In this document: in pieces, positions 4,201 to 51,561 of the stretch
Layout of the letters: the number at the start of each line of letters is the position of its first letter
Position numbering within the stretch: the first letter of the stretch is position 1
IMG/VR virus record: IMGVR_UViG_3300047157_000174
Coordinates: 32,095 to 96,094 of that record
DNA length: 64,000 nt
Reading direction: 5' to 3' (one strand)
Source of the DNA: a virus
Notes under the pieces: model-generated
Seen by the model: the letters and a program-made list of their open reading frames with translations, nothing else
What the model was told of the DNA's origin: nothing
Databases searched by the model: none
Made by a program: the position numbers and the translations under genes

Positions 4201-7200
4201 TCTGTATTAGTTCCGATACCTTCCCACAACATTCCATAATTAACAACTTGATTTGATTTTCCATTATATGAAATATGATTGTAACGTAAATACGAATCAG
4301 GAAATAAATCACCCGCTACAAAAAATTCATACGTTCTAGTCCTGTAATCTTTCTGAACAAATAACTCAACTTTATCATCGAAAGTATTATTCAATACACT
4401 AGCATTAAATCTTGTATCTGTTGAAAGAGCATTCATTTCCCAATAGTTACTAGTTGCACTATTAGATTGACCGTCTGTAACCATAACATTTGAAGTTCTT
4501 ATTGTGTTGGTTGTGCCTGTTTCTGTAAAGTTTTGAATCAAATTATTATTAGTTACAATTGATGTGTCCTTATCCATTCCTTCAAATGTAATATTATGTG
4601 CTAAAGTATATCCACTTATTTTACTAGGTTTTTTACCATCCAAATATATACTATCAGAATCATTAAAATTAATTGTTCCAGAATTAAAGGATTGTAAATC
4701 AATATATCTAAAAATATCATTTGATGTGTAAAAATTATTAAACGTATTATCTAGTTTATGTATATAGCCACCTCTAGGTAAATTAGTATTTAATAAATAT
4801 ATACTAGCAGATTTAGTGTGATTAGAATTAATTCTAGTATCGGAAGAATTTTCATCTATTAACCCTAAAGAAACTGGAAAAATAGGACTAACGTTTATAC
4901 TAGTTTTATTTGTTTCCGATTCAATTATATCTACAACAGACATATAATTAGAACTTTGAATCATTTTTATTGCTTTATTAACATATATTTCATTTTCTTC
5001 TGCTAGTTGAAATAAAAATTTAGAATCAAATTCACTAATTGAATTGATACTATGTAAATCATAACCCATTTTATCTTCTGTTTGGAGTAAAGTATTCTTA
5101 CTAATGTCTTCTAATTCTAAAGATTGATTAAAAGAAAATCCTTGTTCTATTCCTATTCCTTTTTCAGAAGCCCCTTCTAAAGTAGTTGGTCTCAATGACA
5201 TTAATTTATTAGATGACATGGCTTTGTTGAGAGATAAATAATTACCTGTTGTAAATGGATTATAATAGTAATATGTTGTTCCATTACTTATAGAAATATA
5301 TGAATTATCTAATAATGTTATTGTGCTAGTTCCTGATGAATGGGTTATATTATCAACTTCTCCTATCAAAACTTTGTTTGTGTTAAACAATAAAGTATAT
5401 TTTGTAAATAAACTAGTCTTATCACCGCTTACGGTAACAGTCGTGTTTGTAGTATTGCTATTAATACTAGTAGCAATTTCATCTATCGTTCCGGTAACTT
5501 GAGTTAATGTTAAATTAGGATTTAATGAAGATTTGATAATATCTGAAGAAAAATTAAGATTTTTATTAACAGTAGTAGTCAACAATTTAGCAACATCATC
5601 CCTTCCCGAAACTGTATAAGTCATCATCCCATTTTCATTTTTAGATTCTATATCTTCCACATTACCGTTGAATATTTCTTCATTTAATGTAAAACTACCA
5701 TTGTAATAATACATTCTAGAAATGGGTGTCTTCTGATAATACTGTTTCGTTGATTCTAAAACTGTCAAATATTTATGTGTCTTATCTCCATAATTCACTC
5801 TTAAATCATGTCCTCGTCTATTAGTTATTGACAATCTAGAATTGTATAGTTTTGTATTCTCCACTTCTATTGTTCTATCCTCTAGGGTTAATCTATCGCT
5901 TTGGTCGTGTCTTACTGTTGTATCTGCTGCGAACTCAACATTTAGTTTATTGTTAGAATAAGGAACTATGTAACAATCAGCACTAGTAAAAGTATGAACA
6001 GTAGCACCACCAACAAAAACATTACTGTTTACAGTTTTTCTAGCATCTATTGTAAAAGTTTGAGTTGTTAATGTATAATTTCTAGCAGCAACCGACTCTA
6101 CAACATAATGATAACCGTCTATTTCTAAGATAGTATTATCTGATAGTATTGAAGAATAATCATATTCTCCGGTTAAACCATTTATAGTAATAGTATTAGA
6201 ACTAGAACTTACTTTGTGTTCAATTTTTTTAAGTTTCATACTATCCGAGAATAAACCATTTCTAACTACCATTTTAGAATCTTCTGTAACTTTCAAATGT
6301 TGAGTACCGCTATTATCTAAAGTAGTAACAGTAGCAATTTTACTCATTTTATTTTTAGGATTATTTACTATTGTATCTAATGTTGTAGGTATTTTATCAT
6401 TCTTTAAGGAAGCAGTTTCAAATGTTATATATTTCATAGCACCGTTTAAATTTTCACTTTCAGTCCAAACATTACCCGAAAAAGAATGTGCATCGGTAGA
6501 ACTTCTTTTCATTAAAGGGAACGCTTTATTCCAATACAATGGGTCGAAACTACTATCATCTTCATCATCTATTAATGTATTATCAACTAATACGGCATCC
6601 ATCAATCCTCGACCCTTATTTTGTATGGTATTGTCATATTTTTTTTCTGTTTTGAAAACTACATTTTGTATTGTATGTCCTATTTTTAAGTCGGCATCTG
6701 TTGAGGCCGATATTGCTATTCTAGCAAAGTCTAACCTAGCATTATACACCCTACTTTCAATTGCTCCACCGTCATCTCCTAAAGATTCTATGTTACCAAT
6801 ATATGTTCCGCTTGAATTAAACAATGACATTCCTTCTGTCAACTTATCCCAATTTGCTTTTTTAGCCGTAGAAAATTGAATTTGTCTCCCACCTCCACCA
6901 ATTGCATAAACATCATGTTCATTAATTACACTAGTAGAAATTGTAGATAAAGTAGTTTCCCAAATTCTATTAGATGTTACAGTGTATTTTTCATTGTAAT
7001 CTAATTGGTCTTTTTCTTCTAATCTATCATTATAAAAATAAAATGTAGGAGTATTTACATTACATATTTTATCATATTTATTTGTTGTAGCAGAAGTATC
7101 TCCTCTAAGACCGTATGATACTGCTACTAAATCTGTATCTGTTTTTGCTGCACCCTTGTATATTTCAAACTTAGTTCCTTTCGGTATTTCACCATTATAT

Positions 7201-45114: not shown

Positions 45115-45447
45115 TCAAGAACCTTTTCTCCACTTCTTGTTTTTCTTTTCCTTAGTTTTACTAGGACTCCACTTTACTTTATCAGCCCAGTAAGCGGCAG
45201 ACATTTTACCACGTTTAATATTCTTAGCGTGTCTAGATTTGAATGCTTTTCTTTGTCCGGCAGTTTGATTAGTCTTTACTCCTTTTTGACCGAACCTAAT
45301 AGTTTTAACTTTATCTCCATCTTTTACAACAACAATGTGAGATTTAGTTTTGTGCTTAATTCTCTTAGGTTTACTAAAGCCACTCACACCTGCTCTTTTC
45401 AACGCAGGGTGTTTGCCCTTCTTTTTTAGAACATCAAACCAAGTCAT
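45115..45447 (-). CDS. W-tag basic protein of a widespread phage family
   Basis: MTWFDVLK, then VKTIRFGQKG..RKAFKSRH..SAAYWADKVKW, a motif recurrent in phage proteins. Confidence 0.7.
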   Translation of the reverse strand: MTWFDVLKKKGKHPALKRAGVSGFSKPKRIKHKTKSHIVVVKDGDKVKTIRFGQKGVKTNQTAGQRKAFKSRHAKNIKRGKMSAAYWADKVKWSPSKTKEKKNKKWRKGS

Positions 45448-45899
45448 TTATTTCCCGCCTTTTTCTTAGCACATTCTTTACAAATAGGAACACCACTTTC
45501 AGAAACAGTCATATGTCTTCTAGACAACACCTTAGTACACCAACCACATTTATTTTTAGGCATATTGGTAACATTTCTTCGTCTAGATTTTCTTCCGCTA
45601 AAGTTAGGATTACCTACTCTAACATCTCCCTCTTCGGCTTTACCACTACCTGCTCTAGTATTTACTTCACGAACTAATTTTTTACCTGCCCTTCTAACAG
45701 TTTTTTTCGGTAATTCTATTCCCCTACCTATCGGTCTTTTATTTCCTTCGGGCGCTTGACCTCTTTCTTTAATTGCCTTTATTCTTTTTGATTCGGGCAT
45801 TTTTTCTCCACCCATAATATCAGGAGGTCTATCTTTAGGTCTCCCTCTCCCTCTATTTTTCCTACTTCCTTTATTTTTAATAACATCAAACCATGTCAT
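45444..45899 (-). CDS. W-tag basic protein with C-terminal Zn finger
   Basis: MTWFDVIK; CGWC...CKEC. Confidence 0.7.
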   Translation of the reverse strand: MTWFDVIKNKGSRKNRGRGRPKDRPPDIMGGEKMPESKRIKAIKERGQAPEGNKRPIGRGIELPKKTVRRAGKKLVREVNTRAGSGKAEEGDVRVGNPNFSGRKSRRRNVTNMPKNKCGWCTKVLSRRHMTVSESGVPICKECAKKKAGNK

Positions 45900-45911
45900 T
45901 TTTATTCCTCT

Positions 45912-46433
45912 TTACTCTATTCTTTCAGAAGGTATGTTAAAATCGAAATCATCCACTTCTGATAAAGTTCCTAAATCTGTACTCAATTTACTTAAGTTAA
46001 TTTCTATTTGCAATAGGAGTTCTCTAATTGCATCATGGTCGTATTGATTGTCTTCGGTTTTAGGTGTATTATGCAAAGCCCTTCTTGTAACGTCAATACC
46101 CTCGATTAAAACATTTAAGTTTTTCATCATCTCTTTCATACTGCCCGCATCTATTTTTTGTTTTATTACAGTAGTTTCTTTACTTAGGTGTTTCAATGCC
46201 TTTTGGCTTAACTCATTAAAATGATACAGTTTTTTACTTTCTCCTTCAACGTGTTTACTACCACTCATAAGTGTTCCATCGGGATGTTTATGTGTATCTC
46301 CAATATACTGTTTTCCATCTTCAAAGAAATGTCTTTCACCCTTTCCTTTCTTTACTTCTACAACCATACCATAAGTTTTGCATGGGTCTTTTCCACAACC
46401 ACAATTTTTCTTAAGTATATTTTCCCAACTCAT
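45912..46433 (-). CDS. W-tag hypothetical protein (MSWENILK)
   Basis: CGCG..C and THKHPDGTLMSG..H motifs. Confidence 0.7.
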   Translation of the reverse strand: MSWENILKKNCGCGKDPCKTYGMVVEVKKGKGERHFFEDGKQYIGDTHKHPDGTLMSGSKHVEGESKKLYHFNELSQKALKHLSKETTVIKQKIDAGSMKEMMKNLNVLIEGIDVTRRALHNTPKTEDNQYDHDAIRELLLQIEINLSKLSTDLGTLSEVDDFDFNIPSERIE

Positions 46434-46438
46434 ACTAA

Positions 46439-46783
46439 TCACTTCTGCGAGAACTTCTTTCCGGTAGGAACGTGTTGTTTCCCCTTTTTAGTTCCTTCTC
46501 TTTTTTTCCTATCTTGATATTTCAATCTAGACTTAGAGGTTTTCTTGTAAGTTCCCTTTGGCATATACCTACCCTTAGTTTTAGACTTAGGAGTTTTGCC
46601 TTTTTCTTTTGCACTATGTTGTTCGGCACTACCCCACTCTTCATTAGTCCAATTCTGTAAATCTCTTTGTGCGGGTTTTAATGTTCCCTTATTTTTATTT
46701 CTTCTCTGTTTTTTCTTATAGGATTTAGCACCCTTTCTTCTTCGGGGTTTGTTTTTTTTCCTAATTACATCAAACCAATTCAT
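46439..46783 (-). CDS. W-tag basic protein, resembles the C-half of DUF5872
   Basis: MNWFDVIR; Q..L..WT.EEW...GRYMPK...RKKR.G...GKQHV. Confidence 0.65.
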   Translation of the reverse strand: MNWFDVIRKKNKPRRRKGAKSYKKKQRRNKNKGTLKPAQRDLQNWTNEEWGSAEQHSAKEKGKTPKSKTKGRYMPKGTYKKTSKSRLKYQDRKKREGTKKGKQHVPTGKKFSQK

Positions 46784-46784
46784 T

Positions 46785-47210
46785 TTATCGCCTTTCTATT
46801 TCTAACTTAACATTTGGAGTTCCAAACAAACCATCAATAATTCGCCTGTATGGTTTACGAATATAACTATTGTATGCAACAAAATCTATTAATTCTTGTA
46901 CGGAACTAAATTCTGTCTTAGTTAAATATTGTTCTATTTCTTCAGAATCCCACATAAAATGCCCCCCGTTAGAAAACGAATTACCATCCGGTCTTTTAGG
47001 AGAACCACGCTCATCATATTTTTTATATTGTAATCCTAATCTAGATGCTGTGTTTTTAATTTCTTCTTCAATTCCATTAGACCAAGCGATAGGAATATAA
47101 CCGATTGCTTTTTGTTGATTTGAATTAAACATATTTTCTAATTTATTTAGTTCATTTAGATTATGTTCTTTGTCGAACCTTGTATTTTTAATAACATCAA
47201 ACCAATTCAT
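46785..47210 (-). CDS. W-tag hypothetical protein (MNWFDVIK)
   Basis: ORF with shared motif. Confidence 0.7.
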   Translation of the reverse strand: MNWFDVIKNTRFDKEHNLNELNKLENMFNSNQQKAIGYIPIAWSNGIEEEIKNTASRLGLQYKKYDERGSPKRPDGNSFSNGGHFMWDSEEIEQYLTKTEFSSVQELIDFVAYNSYIRKPYRRIIDGLFGTPNVKLEIERR

Positions 47211-47484
47211 AATCCCCTCTCGGATTTAACCAATCTCTTTTCTTACCTTCTGCTGTAATTTCATGCCAAATGTAGCCATTAACTGTTCCTATATTATCTC
47301 CAATCCATTCTAATAATTCATCTTCAATATCTTCTTGTGTAAAATCTTCTTCAATACCTAATTCTTTAGCAGTAAGAAAAGCATTTACAGTAATATCCTC
47401 GTAGGGTTCATCTTCGGTGGAATAAGATTCGATTACAAAAACTCGTTCTTGTTTTTTAACAATTTCAAACCAACTACTAATCAC
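47197..47484 (-). CDS. W-tag acidic protein (SWFEIVK)
   Basis: GTG at 47484 preceded by GGTGG. Confidence 0.65.
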   Translation of the reverse strand: MISSWFEIVKKQERVFVIESYSTEDEPYEDITVNAFLTAKELGIEEDFTQEDIEDELLEWIGDNIGTVNGYIWHEITAEGKKRDWLNPRGDYELV

Positions 47485-47680
47485 GATAACCACCACCTGC
47501 TTTTTTGTAAGCGGCTGCAAGCATCTGTGCTTTTCTTGCAGACCATTGACCTGCTGCTCCTCCTTTACTACCTGCCTTAATTCTTTGAAATTGTCTCTTT
47601 CTCATTTTTGGCTTAGTATAGTTACCTGCTGAATTAACAGTAGATTTCTTTTTCTTCTTAAGAACTTCAAACCAAGTCAT
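47477..47680 (-). CDS. W-tag basic protein, resembles the N-half of DUF5872
   Basis: MTWFEVLK; YTKP.MRKR...IKAG.KGG..GQWSARKAQMLA..YKKAGGGY. Confidence 0.7.
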   Translation of the reverse strand: MTWFEVLKKKKKSTVNSAGNYTKPKMRKRQFQRIKAGSKGGAAGQWSARKAQMLAAAYKKAGGGYRD

Positions 47681-48528
47681 CACAAACCTCTCCATTTTCT
47701 TTCTGCTTCTGACATTGGCCTATACGATTTAGCCCGCATTTCTATTAATCTGCCTAATTGTTCATCATCTTTTTTATTCCACTTAGTTCCTAAATCTCTA
47801 TGGTCTATTCCTAATTCATCATGAATAGTATATTTAGTTATATCTTTAGGTGCAACACCTCTACCTATGAGTTGGTTTATTATTGTCATTATTGTAGTTT
47901 CATCTTGCATTGGAATATCTGTACGCCTTAGTCCATCTTTCCATTTTTCATTATTTTGTTCTTTTGTTTCTGAAGGCATTAAACCGATAATACCTTCTAT
48001 TGCTTCGGGTGTAACTCCATGAATCACATCTAACGTTCTAAGGAATGAGTCTAATTCATAGGGCAAGTTCCATCCATATTCGTTTGCCATATCAATAAAC
48101 TCTTTACCCGATTGATTATATCGTCTATAAGATTCCAAATCTTGTTCTGCTCTTTTTTTCTCATTTTCTAAACGTGATAGTTCATCTCTGAATGGCCGCG
48201 CTTGTTTTTTATATTGTTCTTCAAAATCTCTAATTTTACTCATTTCAGTTTTTTCAGCAATAAGTTTTCTGTGATTATCCTTAAATGCCCTTTTCATATC
48301 TCTTATACTTATACTCAAATCATTATGTTGGTTTTCAAACGATTTCATTCTTTGCTCTATTTCGGGCAACTCTAACTCTGCATTATTTGCTATTATTTGT
48401 AAAAACGCATCTCTATTTTTATTTTCTAAATCAACCCTTTCTCTGCTATCATAGTCTCTTCGATTAAACCAAGACCAAGACCCATCTGAATTACGTACAT
48501 AATATTTCAAAATACTAAACCAATCCAT
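47680..48528 (-). CDS. W-tag coiled-coil protein (MDWFSILK)
   Basis: GGTGA SD and shared motif. Confidence 0.7.
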   Translation of the reverse strand: MDWFSILKYYVRNSDGSWSWFNRRDYDSRERVDLENKNRDAFLQIIANNAELELPEIEQRMKSFENQHNDLSISIRDMKRAFKDNHRKLIAEKTEMSKIRDFEEQYKKQARPFRDELSRLENEKKRAEQDLESYRRYNQSGKEFIDMANEYGWNLPYELDSFLRTLDVIHGVTPEAIEGIIGLMPSETKEQNNEKWKDGLRRTDIPMQDETTIMTIINQLIGRGVAPKDITKYTIHDELGIDHRDLGTKWNKKDDEQLGRLIEMRAKSYRPMSEAERKWRGL

Positions 48529-48674
48529 TTTATCACCAAACCTGTGGGTACTGAAATGTTTTACCTAATGAAAACTGAAAAATGGGCTGTAATTTTTTTA
48601 CCACTAGCGCGAATTTTAATTTTAAGTAGTATCCATAACCAGAATAAGAATAATACTTTAACATTTTTTAACAC

Positions 48675-48920
48675 CTAGAAAAGTTTTTTTTGTTTTGAAT
48701 TAGGCTTAATTTTATTAGCACTAGCAGGTTTGCTAGGTTTAGGCTTACGATTAAAATTAAGGTGTTTAATAGGTTTACCTTTATCATCCACAGCGACAGA
48801 AGCCCCGTCAGTTAATTCTTTAGGCAATTTTGTTTGTTTTGTATTCTTTTTATTCATTGGATTTTTATTATTATTTTCGTCCTTTATTATGCTAAACCAA
48901 ATAGGGTCAGCAGACGACAT
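48675..48920 (-). CDS. Small basic protein with tag (IWFSIIK)
   Basis: ATG 48920 (MSSADPIWFSIIKD) with an AT-rich TATA-like box about 23 nt upstream. Confidence 0.55.
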   Translation of the reverse strand: MSSADPIWFSIIKDENNNKNPMNKKNTKQTKLPKELTDGASVAVDDKGKPIKHLNFNRKPKPSKPASANKIKPNSKQKKLF

Positions 48921-49061
48921 GGTGTCGCCTAGAGTGCTGATGTTAATTAATTTAGTGATAGTAAATAAAAAAAAAATAAAAAAAATTTTAATGCAAAGCA
49001 TATGGTTGGAGATATTATTTGGTTATCCAACCATATGGAGGGGTAGCGTCTTACACTATAC

Positions 49062-49085
49062 TTAGTTTTCTTCATCATCAAACAT
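49062..49085 (-). CDS. Minigene MFDDEEN
   Basis: GGAGGTG SD 8 nt upstream; paralogous minigenes at 49179 and 50794. Confidence 0.45.
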   Translation of the reverse strand: MFDDEEN

Positions 49086-49178
49086 TAACGGTACACCTCC
49101 TGATGTGGTAGCGCATCTATACTGATGCTACCATATGGTTGGGGGGATACTCCCATGTGGTAGACTTAAATTATTTAT

Positions 49179-49199
49179 TTAATCTTCTTCATCGAACAT
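49179..49199 (-). CDS. Minigene MFDEED
   Basis: GGGAGGGA SD upstream; coding sequence identical to 50794-50814. Confidence 0.45.
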   Translation of the reverse strand: MFDEED

Positions 49200-49339
49200 T
49201 AGTATCCCTCCCGAATAACCCCGTGTGGTAGCACAATTATTCATTGATGCTACCATATGGTTGTAACTTTGTGTTACACTAACCCCGAAGGGCTACTATT
49301 CCTAAGAGAAATAGTAGTTTTTCGTGTTCAAATCTTCAT

Positions 49340-49588
49340 TTAGTCCCTATATATTGTTACAGGTGGTGTTGACATAACGTGAAGAAGATACTTGCCAAAA
49401 TCATAGCCATCACGGTAGTATTTCCAAAGATACTCACTCCCATCTCCTATATTAACAATGAAGCGGGAACAATCATCGGCTACCTGTGCATATTCTTCGG
49501 AGTGAACCATCCCTTGTTCTATAAGGCCATCCTGTATCCCGCGTTTGAATGCTAGATTAAGTCTGTATGCAAAGTCCAAGTCAATCAT
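49340..49588 (-). CDS. Cassette hypothetical protein (MIDLDF...)
   Basis: ATG overlaps the TGA of an upstream 32-aa ORF (49588-49686). Confidence 0.6.
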   Translation of the reverse strand: MIDLDFAYRLNLAFKRGIQDGLIEQGMVHSEEYAQVADDCSRFIVNIGDGSEYLWKYYRDGYDFGKYLLHVMSTPPVTIYRD

Positions 49589-49685
49589 CAATCTAACAAC
49601 CCCATTTCTTCCATCCATTTCAGGGTGTTCGGCTGCCAACACTTGTGTAACAAACTTGGGTTATTCTTTGACTTTATCCTAGTCA

Positions 49686-50090
49686 TTAATAGACCCCCGC
49701 ATCCTTAAATGAGTCTGTCATTTCAATACCTTCTTTTGCTAACATATAGTGTTTCCACGCTCTGTTAGCGCGATACTGTTGTTCTTGTTGTCTTCCATAT
49801 TCCCATTCTTCTTCTAATTCATACCAAGTCATATCGGTTGCTTCGGATAATTGTTCTTTAGCGAGTTGGTCGATTGATTCGTTATCAACATATTTAGATA
49901 AGGAATAAACACCCGACTTTTCTACATAATCTCTAATAAACTTACGTTCGATAGGTTCGTAATGTATTGAAACACTGCCATCTTCATGCTTTACTCCTAT
50001 ATATCCTATATTCATCCAAGTTCCGCTATGAACTATCACATCGTTTGAAGTATCACTCCATTTCTCTCTTTCTTCATTCATCTTCATCAT
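49686..50090 (-). CDS. Cassette hypothetical protein
   Basis: 134-aa ORF downstream of the cassette promoter at 50131-50140. Confidence 0.65.
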   Translation of the reverse strand: MMKMNEEREKWSDTSNDVIVHSGTWMNIGYIGVKHEDGSVSIHYEPIERKFIRDYVEKSGVYSLSKYVDNESIDQLAKEQLSEATDMTWYELEEEWEYGRQQEQQYRANRAWKHYMLAKEGIEMTDSFKDAGVY

Positions 50091-50215
50091 ATCCTATGCT
50101 TATCTGCATATTATTAGTAAATTTTCAACATATATGAGGTAATAACAGCACAAAGTTACTTACCATATGGTTGTGTTTAACTTTGTGTTAACTAAGACCC
50201 CGAAGGGTTAGGTTA

Positions 50216-50467
50216 TCAGGCGACTAAATAATCGCCCGAATTAACCTTTTTTCGTATTTCCTTAATTGAATCTTCCTCTAAGAATTGAAGGAGATAATAG
50301 TTTGTAGTCATTGAATACATATCCCAATATGGGTTATACAATGTTACTTCATCGCCGTTAATTGTTGCGATTTGTGAACCGTAAGACATGAAATGTTTAC
50401 CATGTTCATCGAATACCTCAAATTGATTTTTCGCAGGTTTTCCCTTTTTTGTTATCATTGCTCTCAT
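50216..50467 (-). CDS. Cassette hypothetical protein
   Basis: NQF...F.SY.S.IA...WD.YS.TT..Y..QFL, a small family common in phage early regions. Confidence 0.7.
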   Translation of the reverse strand: MRAMITKKGKPAKNQFEVFDEHGKHFMSYGSQIATINGDEVTLYNPYWDMYSMTTNYYLLQFLEEDSIKEIRKKVNSGDYLVA

Positions 50468-50649
50468 TGTTTCACCTTCGGCCTTTTATTAAAATCACCT
50501 GTTAAGATGAAATTATTTCTCCTGATGGTTTTTTGTTGTTCAGTCCAATAAGGACTTCTTAACATAGCATCAAGAGATAACTGTGCGTTCTTTTTTAGTT
50601 GTATATTATTTTCAAGACATTTAGGTCTAGGTAATTTCACTCCTTCCAT
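50464..50649 (-). CDS. Cassette hypothetical protein (leaderless)
   Basis: ATG 22 nt from the promoter box; ATGA overlap with the next gene. Confidence 0.65.
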   Translation of the reverse strand: MEGVKLPRPKCLENNIQLKKNAQLSLDAMLRSPYWTEQQKTIRRNNFILTGDFNKRPKVKQ

Positions 50650-50793
50650 ACTATTAGGAGTTTTTTACAATATGTAAGGTATATCACAAAGTTCCCTACC
50701 ATATGGTTCGAGCATCGTATAACTTTGTGCTTTACGATGTGCGAAGAACCCCGATGGTCTTTTCAGACCAAAGGGCTACCACACTTTTCGAGT

Positions 50794-50814
50794 TTAATCT
50801 TCTTCATCGAACAT
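50794..50814 (-). CDS. Minigene MFDEED
   Basis: TAATG coupling to the upstream ORF and a GAGGTGG SD. Confidence 0.45.
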   Translation of the reverse strand: MFDEED

Positions 50815-51152
50815 TATTCCACCTCAATTTCTCTAATTTCAAAGAATTGCGTGTTTATTAAATCTCTAATTTGATTAAATCTATCATATCCACTACCTCT
50901 TCTAGTTTTGAATCCAGCAAGACCAATAATTTCATCCATCATGTTACTAGTCATTTTAGTTTGAATTTTATTTACAGTTTCAGTTGCTTTACTTTTTGAT
51001 GAATACAACTTTTCCATCATTTCACTAATTCGATAACTTCTAACTGCTTTTGTAACTTCGACATATGCCGGATACAAGTGATGTTCGATATCATCACTAA
51101 ATTCTTTCGCTTTTATTTCATATACTACTTTTGGGTCTCTACCACTTCTCAT
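50814..51152 (-). CDS. Cassette hypothetical protein (MRSGRDPK...)
   Basis: Start reassigned to ATG 51152, 22 nt from the promoter box. Confidence 0.7.
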   Translation of the reverse strand: MRSGRDPKVVYEIKAKEFSDDIEHHLYPAYVEVTKAVRSYRISEMMEKLYSSKSKATETVNKIQTKMTSNMMDEIIGLAGFKTRRGSGYDRFNQIRDLINTQFFEIREIEVE

Positions 51153-51259
51153 AGTATGTGTCGAGATTGGATATATATAAGGTAAATAATGACACAAAGT
51201 TACTTACCATATGGTTGGAAATACTTTGTGCTTTCAAACCCTATATGTAAAACTCTTAA

Positions 51260-51545
51260 CACACAATAGGGCTTCAAGGGATAATTAACGGTAAAACATA
51301 TAGAATATGTTCAGAGTTAACTGATAAATTACTGTTTTCCGTGTATAACCGTTTGACTTATTGGTAGATGATTGGATTACTAACCGAAAAGACTCTAATC
51401 TAGAATAGTCTACATAGTTTTCATTTCACAATATCGAATCCTCAGTTCTAAGTTATACACTCGGATTTGTGCCTTAAGGTCACGTTTCCTGTGAGAGTAT
51501 AATTACCTCTATCCGCCCTATTGGTGTTGTTCGTTTCGCGTTGAA
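51260..51545 (-). ncRNA. Putative structured RNA of about 280 nt
   Basis: ORF-free. Nested complementary pairs: CAATAGGGC(51264)/GCCCTATTG(51515), GTGTATAAC(51341)/GTTATACAC(51452), plus several local hairpins. Confidence 0.5.
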
Positions 51546-51561
51546 CGTACGCTTGGGAATT

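Follow-up and report, generated by a model that had tools for sequence, protein, structure and literature searches.

The 64,000-nucleotide (nt) window analyzed here, i.e., bases 32095-96094 of the 96,094-bp virus record IMGVR_UViG_3300047157_000174 in IMG/VR, carries members of a family of very short acidic open reading frames (mini-ORFs). Judging from sequence, these mini-ORFs are either led by a Shine-Dalgarno (SD) site or leaderless, comprise 6 to 14 codons, and have as their only constant content a run of 3 to 8 Asp and Glu residues near the start; the run is usually preceded by Phe or Tyr and followed almost directly by the stop codon. As SD site, start and stop are kept among relatives and substitutions are biased towards third codon positions, we conclude that these ORFs behave as acidic coding sequences under purifying selection, and they are very probably translated. 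Their arrangement marks them as modular components of the array of early-gene cassettes in one sub-lineage of magroviruses.

An earlier note on this DNA had claimed three acidic minigenes, each with a strong SD site, and all three (mini-ORFs A, B and C; Table 1) were found in place on the minus strand. The 21 nt of B are identical to the 21 nt of C, while A departs from them by TTT for TTC and by conservative codons; the coding sequences of these SD-led copies span 6 to 7 codons (up to 14 in relatives). Exactly three SD-led acidic mini-ORFs occur in the whole 96-kb genome, as compared to none in 100 dinucleotide shuffles, and a reversed control pattern gave no matches. Among the long ORFs of the virus, just 2 of 49 have at least three Asp or Glu among residues 2 to 7. 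The mini-ORFs lie in an array of small transcription units (approx. 48.96-52.5 kb) whose units are separated by a 10-bp palindrome, ACCATATGGT, present in seven exact copies (0.05 expected). Two of the copies had been described as holding cassettes of their own of about 120 bp, and A and B are indeed each flanked by two CCATATGG cores, spaced 100 and 122 bp apart, respectively. Mini-ORF C follows a 112-amino-acid (aa) cargo ORF, the last codons of which (ending in EIEVE) contain the SD site of C. A further, leaderless upstream ORF (uORF), MQISIGYDEDE (here termed E), had been placed at the spacing expected from a promoter; its ATG is located 21 nt after a TATA-like motif.

Table 1. Positions of the mini-ORFs and associated features in the window (stop codons are omitted from peptides)
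Feature	Position	Strand	Remarks
End of leftward early array	48960-49041	-	12-bp hairpin of two palindrome cores, then T8 and T10 runs, then 'tag' gene block
Anti-SD arm of A, TACCCCTCC	49037-49045	-	pairs at 8 of 9 positions with SD region; overlaps next palindrome core; fold z = -2.0
Mini-ORF A, MFDDEEN	49062-49085	-	in 100-bp palindrome-to-palindrome cassette
SD of A, GGAGGTG	49094-49100	-	8 nt before ATG
5' hairpin of cassette A	49105-49133	-	stem begins in right half of palindrome P1
Palindrome P1	49130-49139
3' arm of B stem, AGTATCCCCCC	49141-49151	-	C-rich; pairs with SD arm, enclosing mini-ORF
Mini-ORF B, MFDEED	49179-49199	-	in 122-bp cassette
SD arm of B, GGGAGGGATACT	49201-49212	-	contains GGGAGGGA
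5' hairpin of cassette B	49226-49255	-	overlaps palindrome P2
Palindrome P2	49252-49261
Leaderless uORF E, MQISIGYDEDE	50074-50109	-	overlaps start of 134-aa ORF (49686-50090)
Cassette 3' hairpin, GGTAGCCC ... GGGG	50745-50786	-	directly after mini-ORF C
Mini-ORF C, MFDEED	50794-50814	-	SD GAGGTGG at 50819-50825
Cargo ORF, 112 aa	50814-51152	-	TAA shares base 50814 with ATG of C (TAATG overlap)
TATA-like motifs	50131-50142, 50668-50680, 51173-51186, 51805-51816	-
TATA-like motif	51858-51869	+
Palindrome cores	49130, 49252, 50162, 50698, 51206, 51834, 52468		within window 49130-52477

Relatives were collected with the nearby helicase as the probe, which yielded approx. 120 related loci (numbered with the prefix L below), all from metagenomic assemblies. 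Approximately 20 distinct homologous mini-ORFs were found in at least nine genomes with helicase identities of 62 to 100%, at 2 to 4 copies per genome. All homologs keep an SD-like site, a stop and the acidic run, and in all but one a canonical start (ATG or GTG) is located 4 to 9 nt after the SD, which reads GGAGGTG, GGGAGGTGA or AAGGAGGT. The sub-lineage that bears mini-ORFs is small, and many relatives with the palindrome array have none.

The homologs occur in five settings. The A-type is a palindrome-to-palindrome cassette of 105-130 nt, built of a 5' hairpin, the SD, the mini-ORF and a 3' arm, with orthologs reading MFDDEE (L176), MDEEEEE(E)QE with a GTG start (L005 and L173), MDEDEEEEQE (L013), MYDDED (L007), MYDEED (L180), MYCDDE (L109) and MNDDDA (L195). 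B-type cassettes resemble the A-type, with a long stem that joins the SD and a C-rich tract, and both kinds run to about 110-135 nt between ACCATATGGT palindromes; B-type orthologs are MFDDED in L176, MFDEED with a TGA stop in L007 and L180, and MYDDTDDE in L185. In the C-type, the start overlaps the stop of one of three unrelated cargo ORFs. One of these encodes the 112-aa protein, with TAATG or TGATG as the overlap; in L007 and L180 the cargo is a zinc-ribbon ORF of 27 aa (TAATG), and in L109 it is a protein of 177 aa, where an ATGA overlap yields MMGVFDEED. The ortholog of window copy C in L176 and L175 is MFDDDE with a TGATG overlap, and the cargo there is just 65% identical. D-type copies (L005, L173 and L013) read MKDDEEEEEN, MKYDDEEEEEED or a 14-codon form and represent the sole ORF of substance in units that carry the full palindrome and TATA-like promoter, as protein cassettes do. 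In L005 and also in L173, the D-type unit additionally holds a leaderless frame of 7 codons, MKGGMLP (7344-7364 of L005, minus strand), whose start lies 21 nt past the promoter motif. This frame reads across the SD, and its stop overlaps the start of the acidic mini-ORF (ATGA); in L013, ATC stands in place of its ATG, i.e., the frame is not conserved. Finally, the E-type uORF reads MQISIGYDDDE in L176, with one third-position change.

When every palindrome-to-palindrome interval of 60-160 nt in the relatives was listed without regard to ORFs, 17 of the 19 distinct intervals were found to hold an SD and an acidic mini-ORF, always oriented to follow the 5' hairpin, and the other two were plain hairpins. 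The 112-aa cargo of C has 16 full-length metagenomic homologs (58-88% identity), all ending in EIEVE or EIEFE; no member of this family was found in IMG/VR by alignment. Frameshifting or readthrough that would join MFDEED to the cargo was rejected, as a slippery site is lacking and simple termination-reinitiation accounts for the frames. In IMG/VR, the exact MFDEED pattern gave, beyond one relative, three matches that have no SD and resemble the ends of longer ORFs. An exact 14-mer scan of IMG/VR with the palindrome and hairpin start gave mainly chance matches, and a scan for the cassette 3' hairpin gave no new relatives.

Evidence for coding comes from what changes and what remains constant among these relatives. 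Variable features are the spacer, the start codon (ATG or GTG), the initial residues, the run length and the choice of stop (TAA or TGA), whereas the SD-to-start spacing (4-9 nt), the frame and the location of the stop, 0-2 codons past the acidic run, remain constant. Across 12 orthologous pairs, 15 of 16 sense substitutions fell at codon position 3 (binomial P approx. 8e-7, for events that are not fully independent); the single exception, at position 1, changes N to D. Three further changes in these pairs are stop-to-stop, and all eight indels comprise whole codons. Between window copy C and its ortholog in L176, 4 of the 12 bases in acidic codons have changed, all of them third-position changes and one in each of the four acidic codons, while the 3' flank is nearly unchanged. 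Asp and Glu swap freely throughout the family. An [FY]-D opening of the acidic run is found in approx. 16 of the 21 distinct copies, and an unchanged FDEED is shared by the window, L007, L180 and L109, a distant genome, with synonymous differences among its codons. The earlier note had named loss of the ATG, stop or SD with retention of the nucleotide motif as the observation that would mark a DNA or RNA element; this was looked for in the relatives and seen at one site only, in L186. Overall, its proposal that the minigenes are translated is supported by the retained SD, start and stop and by the third-position changes, whereas the functions it offered (acidic mimics, ribosome or peptidyl-tRNA sinks, or signals) are putative.

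The stand-alone copies are associated with conserved predicted RNA structure. Compared to shuffled sequences, the fold of cassette B has z = -4.5 and that of its L007 ortholog z = -5.2. In the B stem, an A.C mismatch of the window corresponds to G-C in L007 and to A-U in L180, and one C-G pair is replaced by U-A in L180. The pairing of the anti-SD arm of A is stronger in L195 (7+4 bp) and L186 (8+6 bp). The right half of the palindrome is always where the 5' hairpin begins; the inner pairs of this hairpin covary in four versions of the stem, i.e., TGGTAGC/GCTACCA, TGGTTCAT/ATGAACCA, TGGTTGCA/TGCAACCA and GGTGGG/CCCACC. As the G.U pairs lie on the sense strand, folding as RNA is favored over a DNA cruciform. 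The element masked in A-type cassettes is the SD in the window, L176, L195 and L186 and the GTG start in L005 and L013, and the ATG of D-type copies lies within a 7-9-bp stem formed with the cassette 3' hairpin, the same element that lies directly after C in the window and that also follows the D-type mini-ORFs of L005, L013 and L173. As a conserved fold thus masks either the start or the SD, these structure models imply that the stand-alone copies are translated under structural gating.

Units of the array that bear proteins show a palindrome followed by a TATA-like motif, (A/T)ACC-Y-Y-ATAT. The ATG is located 20-21 nt past this motif in 10 of approx. 20 cases from the virus and its relatives (exactly 21 nt in nine); the start of uORF E, with its motif at 50131-50142, is among those at the 21-nt spacing. 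As this spacing is the geometry of archaeal leaderless transcripts, it suggests that the early mRNAs of the cassettes are leaderless. The palindromes are often flanked by CAAAG/CTTTG arms, and palindrome and arms are retained down to relatives with 46-50% helicase identity; the palindrome could represent an operator, a promoter-proximal site or a recombination site. The palindrome copy at 51834 sits between divergent promoters. After mini-ORF A, the 12-bp hairpin and the T8 and T10 runs are likely an archaeal terminator. The products of the gene block beyond it have an N-terminal WF-x-[VI]-[ILV]-K tag in common.

Together, mini-genes and palindromes mark an array whose cassettes are reshuffled and inverted among genomes that are almost identical. 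L005 (helicase 99% identical to that of the window) and L013 (100%) differ in both cassette content and orientation, with the A cassette inverted in L013 (1458-1585) as compared to the window (49029-49262). In L007 (6525-7299) and L180 (1678-2324), the whole B-to-A segment is inverted relative to the same part of the window, and comparison of the inverted copies between these two genomes shows that they are still maintained, with conservative changes and compensated stems. Integron cassettes likewise form arrays of short units bounded by structured inverted-repeat sites, with content and orientation that vary between close relatives. However, integron arrays have the IntI tyrosine recombinase beside them, and the 96-kb genome has no PF00589 or PF00239 match, i.e., no tyrosine or serine recombinase; moreover, attC sites are imperfect inverted repeats, whereas the sites here are perfect 10-bp palindromes with promoter-proximal arms, and each protein cassette has its own promoter. 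Integron-type recombination was rejected, as no recombinase was found.

As any codons would serve for translation as such, bare translation cannot be the feature that is selected. The reading that we tentatively favor, by analogy and at somewhat below an even chance, is that the selected property is a short polyacidic nascent chain, which would alter elongation or termination of its own ribosome. Such a ribosome-level effect is favored because the free exchange of Asp and Glu and the variable length of the run match charge-dependent nascent-chain effects. What selection maintains is negative charge near the start, with Asp and Glu exchangeable and run length variable; on the favored reading, each element would be a ribosome-engaging RNA module. 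Opening of the masking stem, or arrival of a ribosome from the coupled cargo ORF, would load a ribosome that would abort or terminate slowly on the acidic run, and the changed ribosome occupancy may in turn change RNA structure or fate at the ends of the cassette. Taken to its full extent, i.e., that the family destabilizes or stalls the translating archaeal ribosome and thereby resets ribosome traffic or RNA fate at cassette junctions early in infection, with the SD-masking stem as the gate, the proposal is unlikely; if true, it would provide the first element of this type in archaea and in any virus.

Precedent for the favored ribosome-level effect comes from two systems. Acidic runs right after the start destabilize the translating ribosome in bacteria and eukaryotes, which is termed intrinsic ribosome destabilization (IRD; 10.1101/2021.02.02.429294; PMC12673854). 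IRD leaders such as MgtL (MEPDPT.., enterobacteria; IRD has also been shown in eukaryotes) resemble the mini-ORFs in having an acidic cluster in the first codons of a very short ORF, with charge mattering over sequence (10.1101/2021.02.02.429294; PMC12673854), and all copies described here have a D/E(/P)-rich cluster within approx. the first 10 residues. Unlike MgtL, which governs a downstream gene via alternative RNA structures, most mini-ORFs have nothing downstream, and their stop lies directly after the run, which a bulky Phe or Tyr usually precedes; they also differ from IRD leaders in being viral and multi-copy. MifM of Bacillus subtilis contains a literal DEED cluster (residues 86-89), which acts at and blocks the peptidyl-transferase center and whose D/E residues are redundant (PMC4423224). 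MifM, however, needs approx. 20 upstream residues that touch the exit tunnel (PMC4423224), for which mini-ORFs of 6-14 aa are too short, and it regulates yidC2.

Several observations weigh against an effect on the ribosome. The host is uncultured, and IRD is not known to occur in archaea. Arrest of the MifM type needs a long upstream nascent chain, which mini-ORF peptides do not have, and with a stop directly after the run, release does not depend on translation being aborted. The units of the A, B and D copies contain no further ORF downstream that could be regulated; overlap with a cargo ORF start is limited to the E copy. The L186 site has TTA in place of ATG, which leaves either a GTG inside the SD or a non-canonical CTG. 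The presence of an exact FDEED in L109, a distant genome, is a hint that a specific sequence, and not charge in bulk, is recognized. In addition, Phe or Tyr precedes the acidic run in most copies, and a bulky residue ahead of the run counteracts IRD in Escherichia coli (10.1101/2021.02.02.429294).

The main rival, somewhat unlikely in our view and disfavored relative to a ribosome effect, is that a free aromatic-acidic peptide ([FY]-D-[DE]3+) acts in trans as a small acidic mimic that binds a basic pocket of a host or viral protein, with the multiple copies and strong SDs supplying dose. Such a peptide would account for the D-type, in which the mini-ORF is the sole cargo of a full promoter cassette, for the A and B terminal units, which have nothing downstream to regulate, and for the 2-4 copies per genome; the predominant [FY]-D start and the FDEED identity despite synonymous codon differences point in the same direction. 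It fits less well with the free swapping of Asp and Glu, with runs that range from 3 to 8 residues and with several copies that have no aromatic residue (MDEEEEEQE, MKDDEEEEEN and MNDDDA), and no partner is identifiable. Moreover, binding by peptides of 6-14 residues is weak, and their degradation is usually rapid. The related idea of a secreted signal found no support, as the peptides are just 6-14 aa long and have no signal peptide. Alternatively, the ORF may be incidental to a structured non-coding RNA or to an attC-like DNA hairpin with a role in recombination or regulation, with the "SD" serving only as one arm of a stem and the GA-rich tract only as a loop or as a motif bound by protein. 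We regard this as improbable. The strong folds (z = -4.5 to -5.2), the covarying stems, the inversion of cassettes between genomes with helicases 99-100% identical to that of the window (L013 vs. L005; L007 and L180 vs. the window) and the L186 site with no canonical start speak for it. However, a start at SD spacing and an in-frame stop survive complete turnover of spacer and peptide, substitutions show codon periodicity, and the C, D and E copies hold the same kind of ORF without the A/B fold; the genome also has no integrase or resolvase, and there is no Rfam match. A pure nucleotide motif is inadequate for the same data, as a GA-N periodic protein-binding site has no need of an SD, a start or a stop.

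Two further explanations appear less probable still. The mini-ORFs could be functionless by-products, i.e., remnants of acidic gene ends or GAA/GAT microsatellites carried along by cassette shuffling at the palindromes. Run length does shift by whole GAA units, from 5 to 7 Glu, between near-identical genomes, and distant relatives have cassette proteins of 160-210 aa whose EEE terminus lies at the same place, ahead of the junction hairpin; nevertheless, every copy has its own SD and start, the D-type its own promoter and the SD stem its compensatory changes, and the ORFs persist from 100% down to 62% helicase identity with conservative change only, all of which makes this origin very improbable. 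The least probable explanation is a toxic minigene in the sense of lambda bar or CreT, where heavy translation traps tRNA as peptidyl-tRNA or titrates peptidyl-tRNA hydrolase and so shuts down host translation. In its favor are a strong SD, an efficient start, a very short ORF, a nearby stable stem-loop and presence in several copies, as described for CreT (PMC8501985) and toxic minigenes (PMC2490762). In the codon usage of the virus itself, however, GAA and GAT are the second and third commonest of 61 codons; synonymous codons as well as Asp and Glu vary between orthologs, which leaves no one tRNA as the target; the window encodes no tRNA with which the virus could protect itself; and a stem masks the SD instead of leaving it accessible.

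CreT, from the CreTA modules of Haloarcula hispanica and Halobacterium hubeiense, is a small RNA of archaea that requires a stem-loop and combines a strong SD with an AUG or GUG start and an ORF of 4-6 codons (PMC8501985), and it acts through being translated, not through its peptide (PMC8501985). The strong SD and the AUG/GUG start are found in the mini-ORFs as well, but CreT uses two consecutive rare codons and a rare tRNA, whereas mini-ORF codons are common and synonymously variable; a CreT-type sink for a rare tRNA does not fit this codon usage of the virus. Stable conserved stems are present at the mini-ORFs too; rather than following the ORF, they enclose and mask the start region. No CreA/CRISPR partner was seen in the virus early region in which the mini-ORFs are set, though no search was aimed at one. 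Lambda bar and synthetic 2-8-codon minigenes represent phage-borne combinations of an SD, a very short ORF and a stop that cause peptidyl-tRNA drop-off (PMC2490762). The window copies likewise consist of an SD, a start, 2-8 sense codons and a stop; the bar ORFs, however, have 2 codons and no conserved peptide character, whereas the mini-ORFs have a selected acidic run, reach 14 codons and carry a masked SD. With regard to the favored effect on the ribosome, the family represents a compact natural test case for whether the perturbation that acidic nascent chains cause in bacterial and eukaryotic ribosomes extends to those of archaea, and its elements are short enough for in vitro work that does not require culturing the host.

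The 96-kb genome has direct terminal repeats, and the window encodes an SU10-type major capsid protein, a large terminase, an ATP-dependent DNA ligase and a UvrD-type helicase; a TFIIB-type zinc-ribbon transcription factor (TFB) and a B-family DNA polymerase (PolB) are also encoded. All relatives originate from marine metagenomes. The terminally redundant tailed-virus genome of approx. 100 kb, the archaeal-type information genes and the marine relatives fit a magrovirus-like virus, i.e., an archaeal tailed virus of marine group II (MGII) archaea. A Bacteroidota host (i.e., a crAss-like virus) with TAnnTTTG promoters was considered and dropped given the TFB gene, the general use of SD sites (an SD 5-mer precedes 38 of 103 virus ORFs, as compared to a background of 3.5%) and the leaderless pattern of a TATA-like motif plus 21 nt. 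Magroviruses belong to the archaeal viruses that are most abundant in the surface ocean, and we know of no account of how their early genes work; the magrovirus papers found in our literature search did not mention repeats, palindromes, promoters or mini-genes, and no description of acidic mini-genes was found in the literature searched. A tRNA scan of the window found no tRNA genes, Rfam at a permissive threshold gave only two chance miRNA matches in 48000-54100, and GenBank phages showed no DNA match to the region. Left of the window (G000:C1:10794-14123), the PolB match falls into two separate ORFs, of 566 aa and 308 aa, between which lie small ORFs; polB may thus be split or interrupted.

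Distant relatives (L021:4243-4749 and 6018-6533; L023:5387-5893; L017, L063, L068 and L090) encode one to two paralogs of the 160-210-aa cassette proteins, which terminate right before the junction hairpin with their EEE ends, and the plus-strand ORF at 51935-52366 of the window, judged by eye, may be a homolog. At least eight genes on the minus strand (45441-48921 and 32442 in the window) begin with a tag, M-x-W-F-[DES]-[VI]-[ILV]-K. An origin of the mini-ORFs from this N-terminal "WFD" tag of their neighbors was set aside, as just 7 nt are in common. Several of the products bearing the WF tag are very basic, and the tag may represent a packaging or targeting signal.

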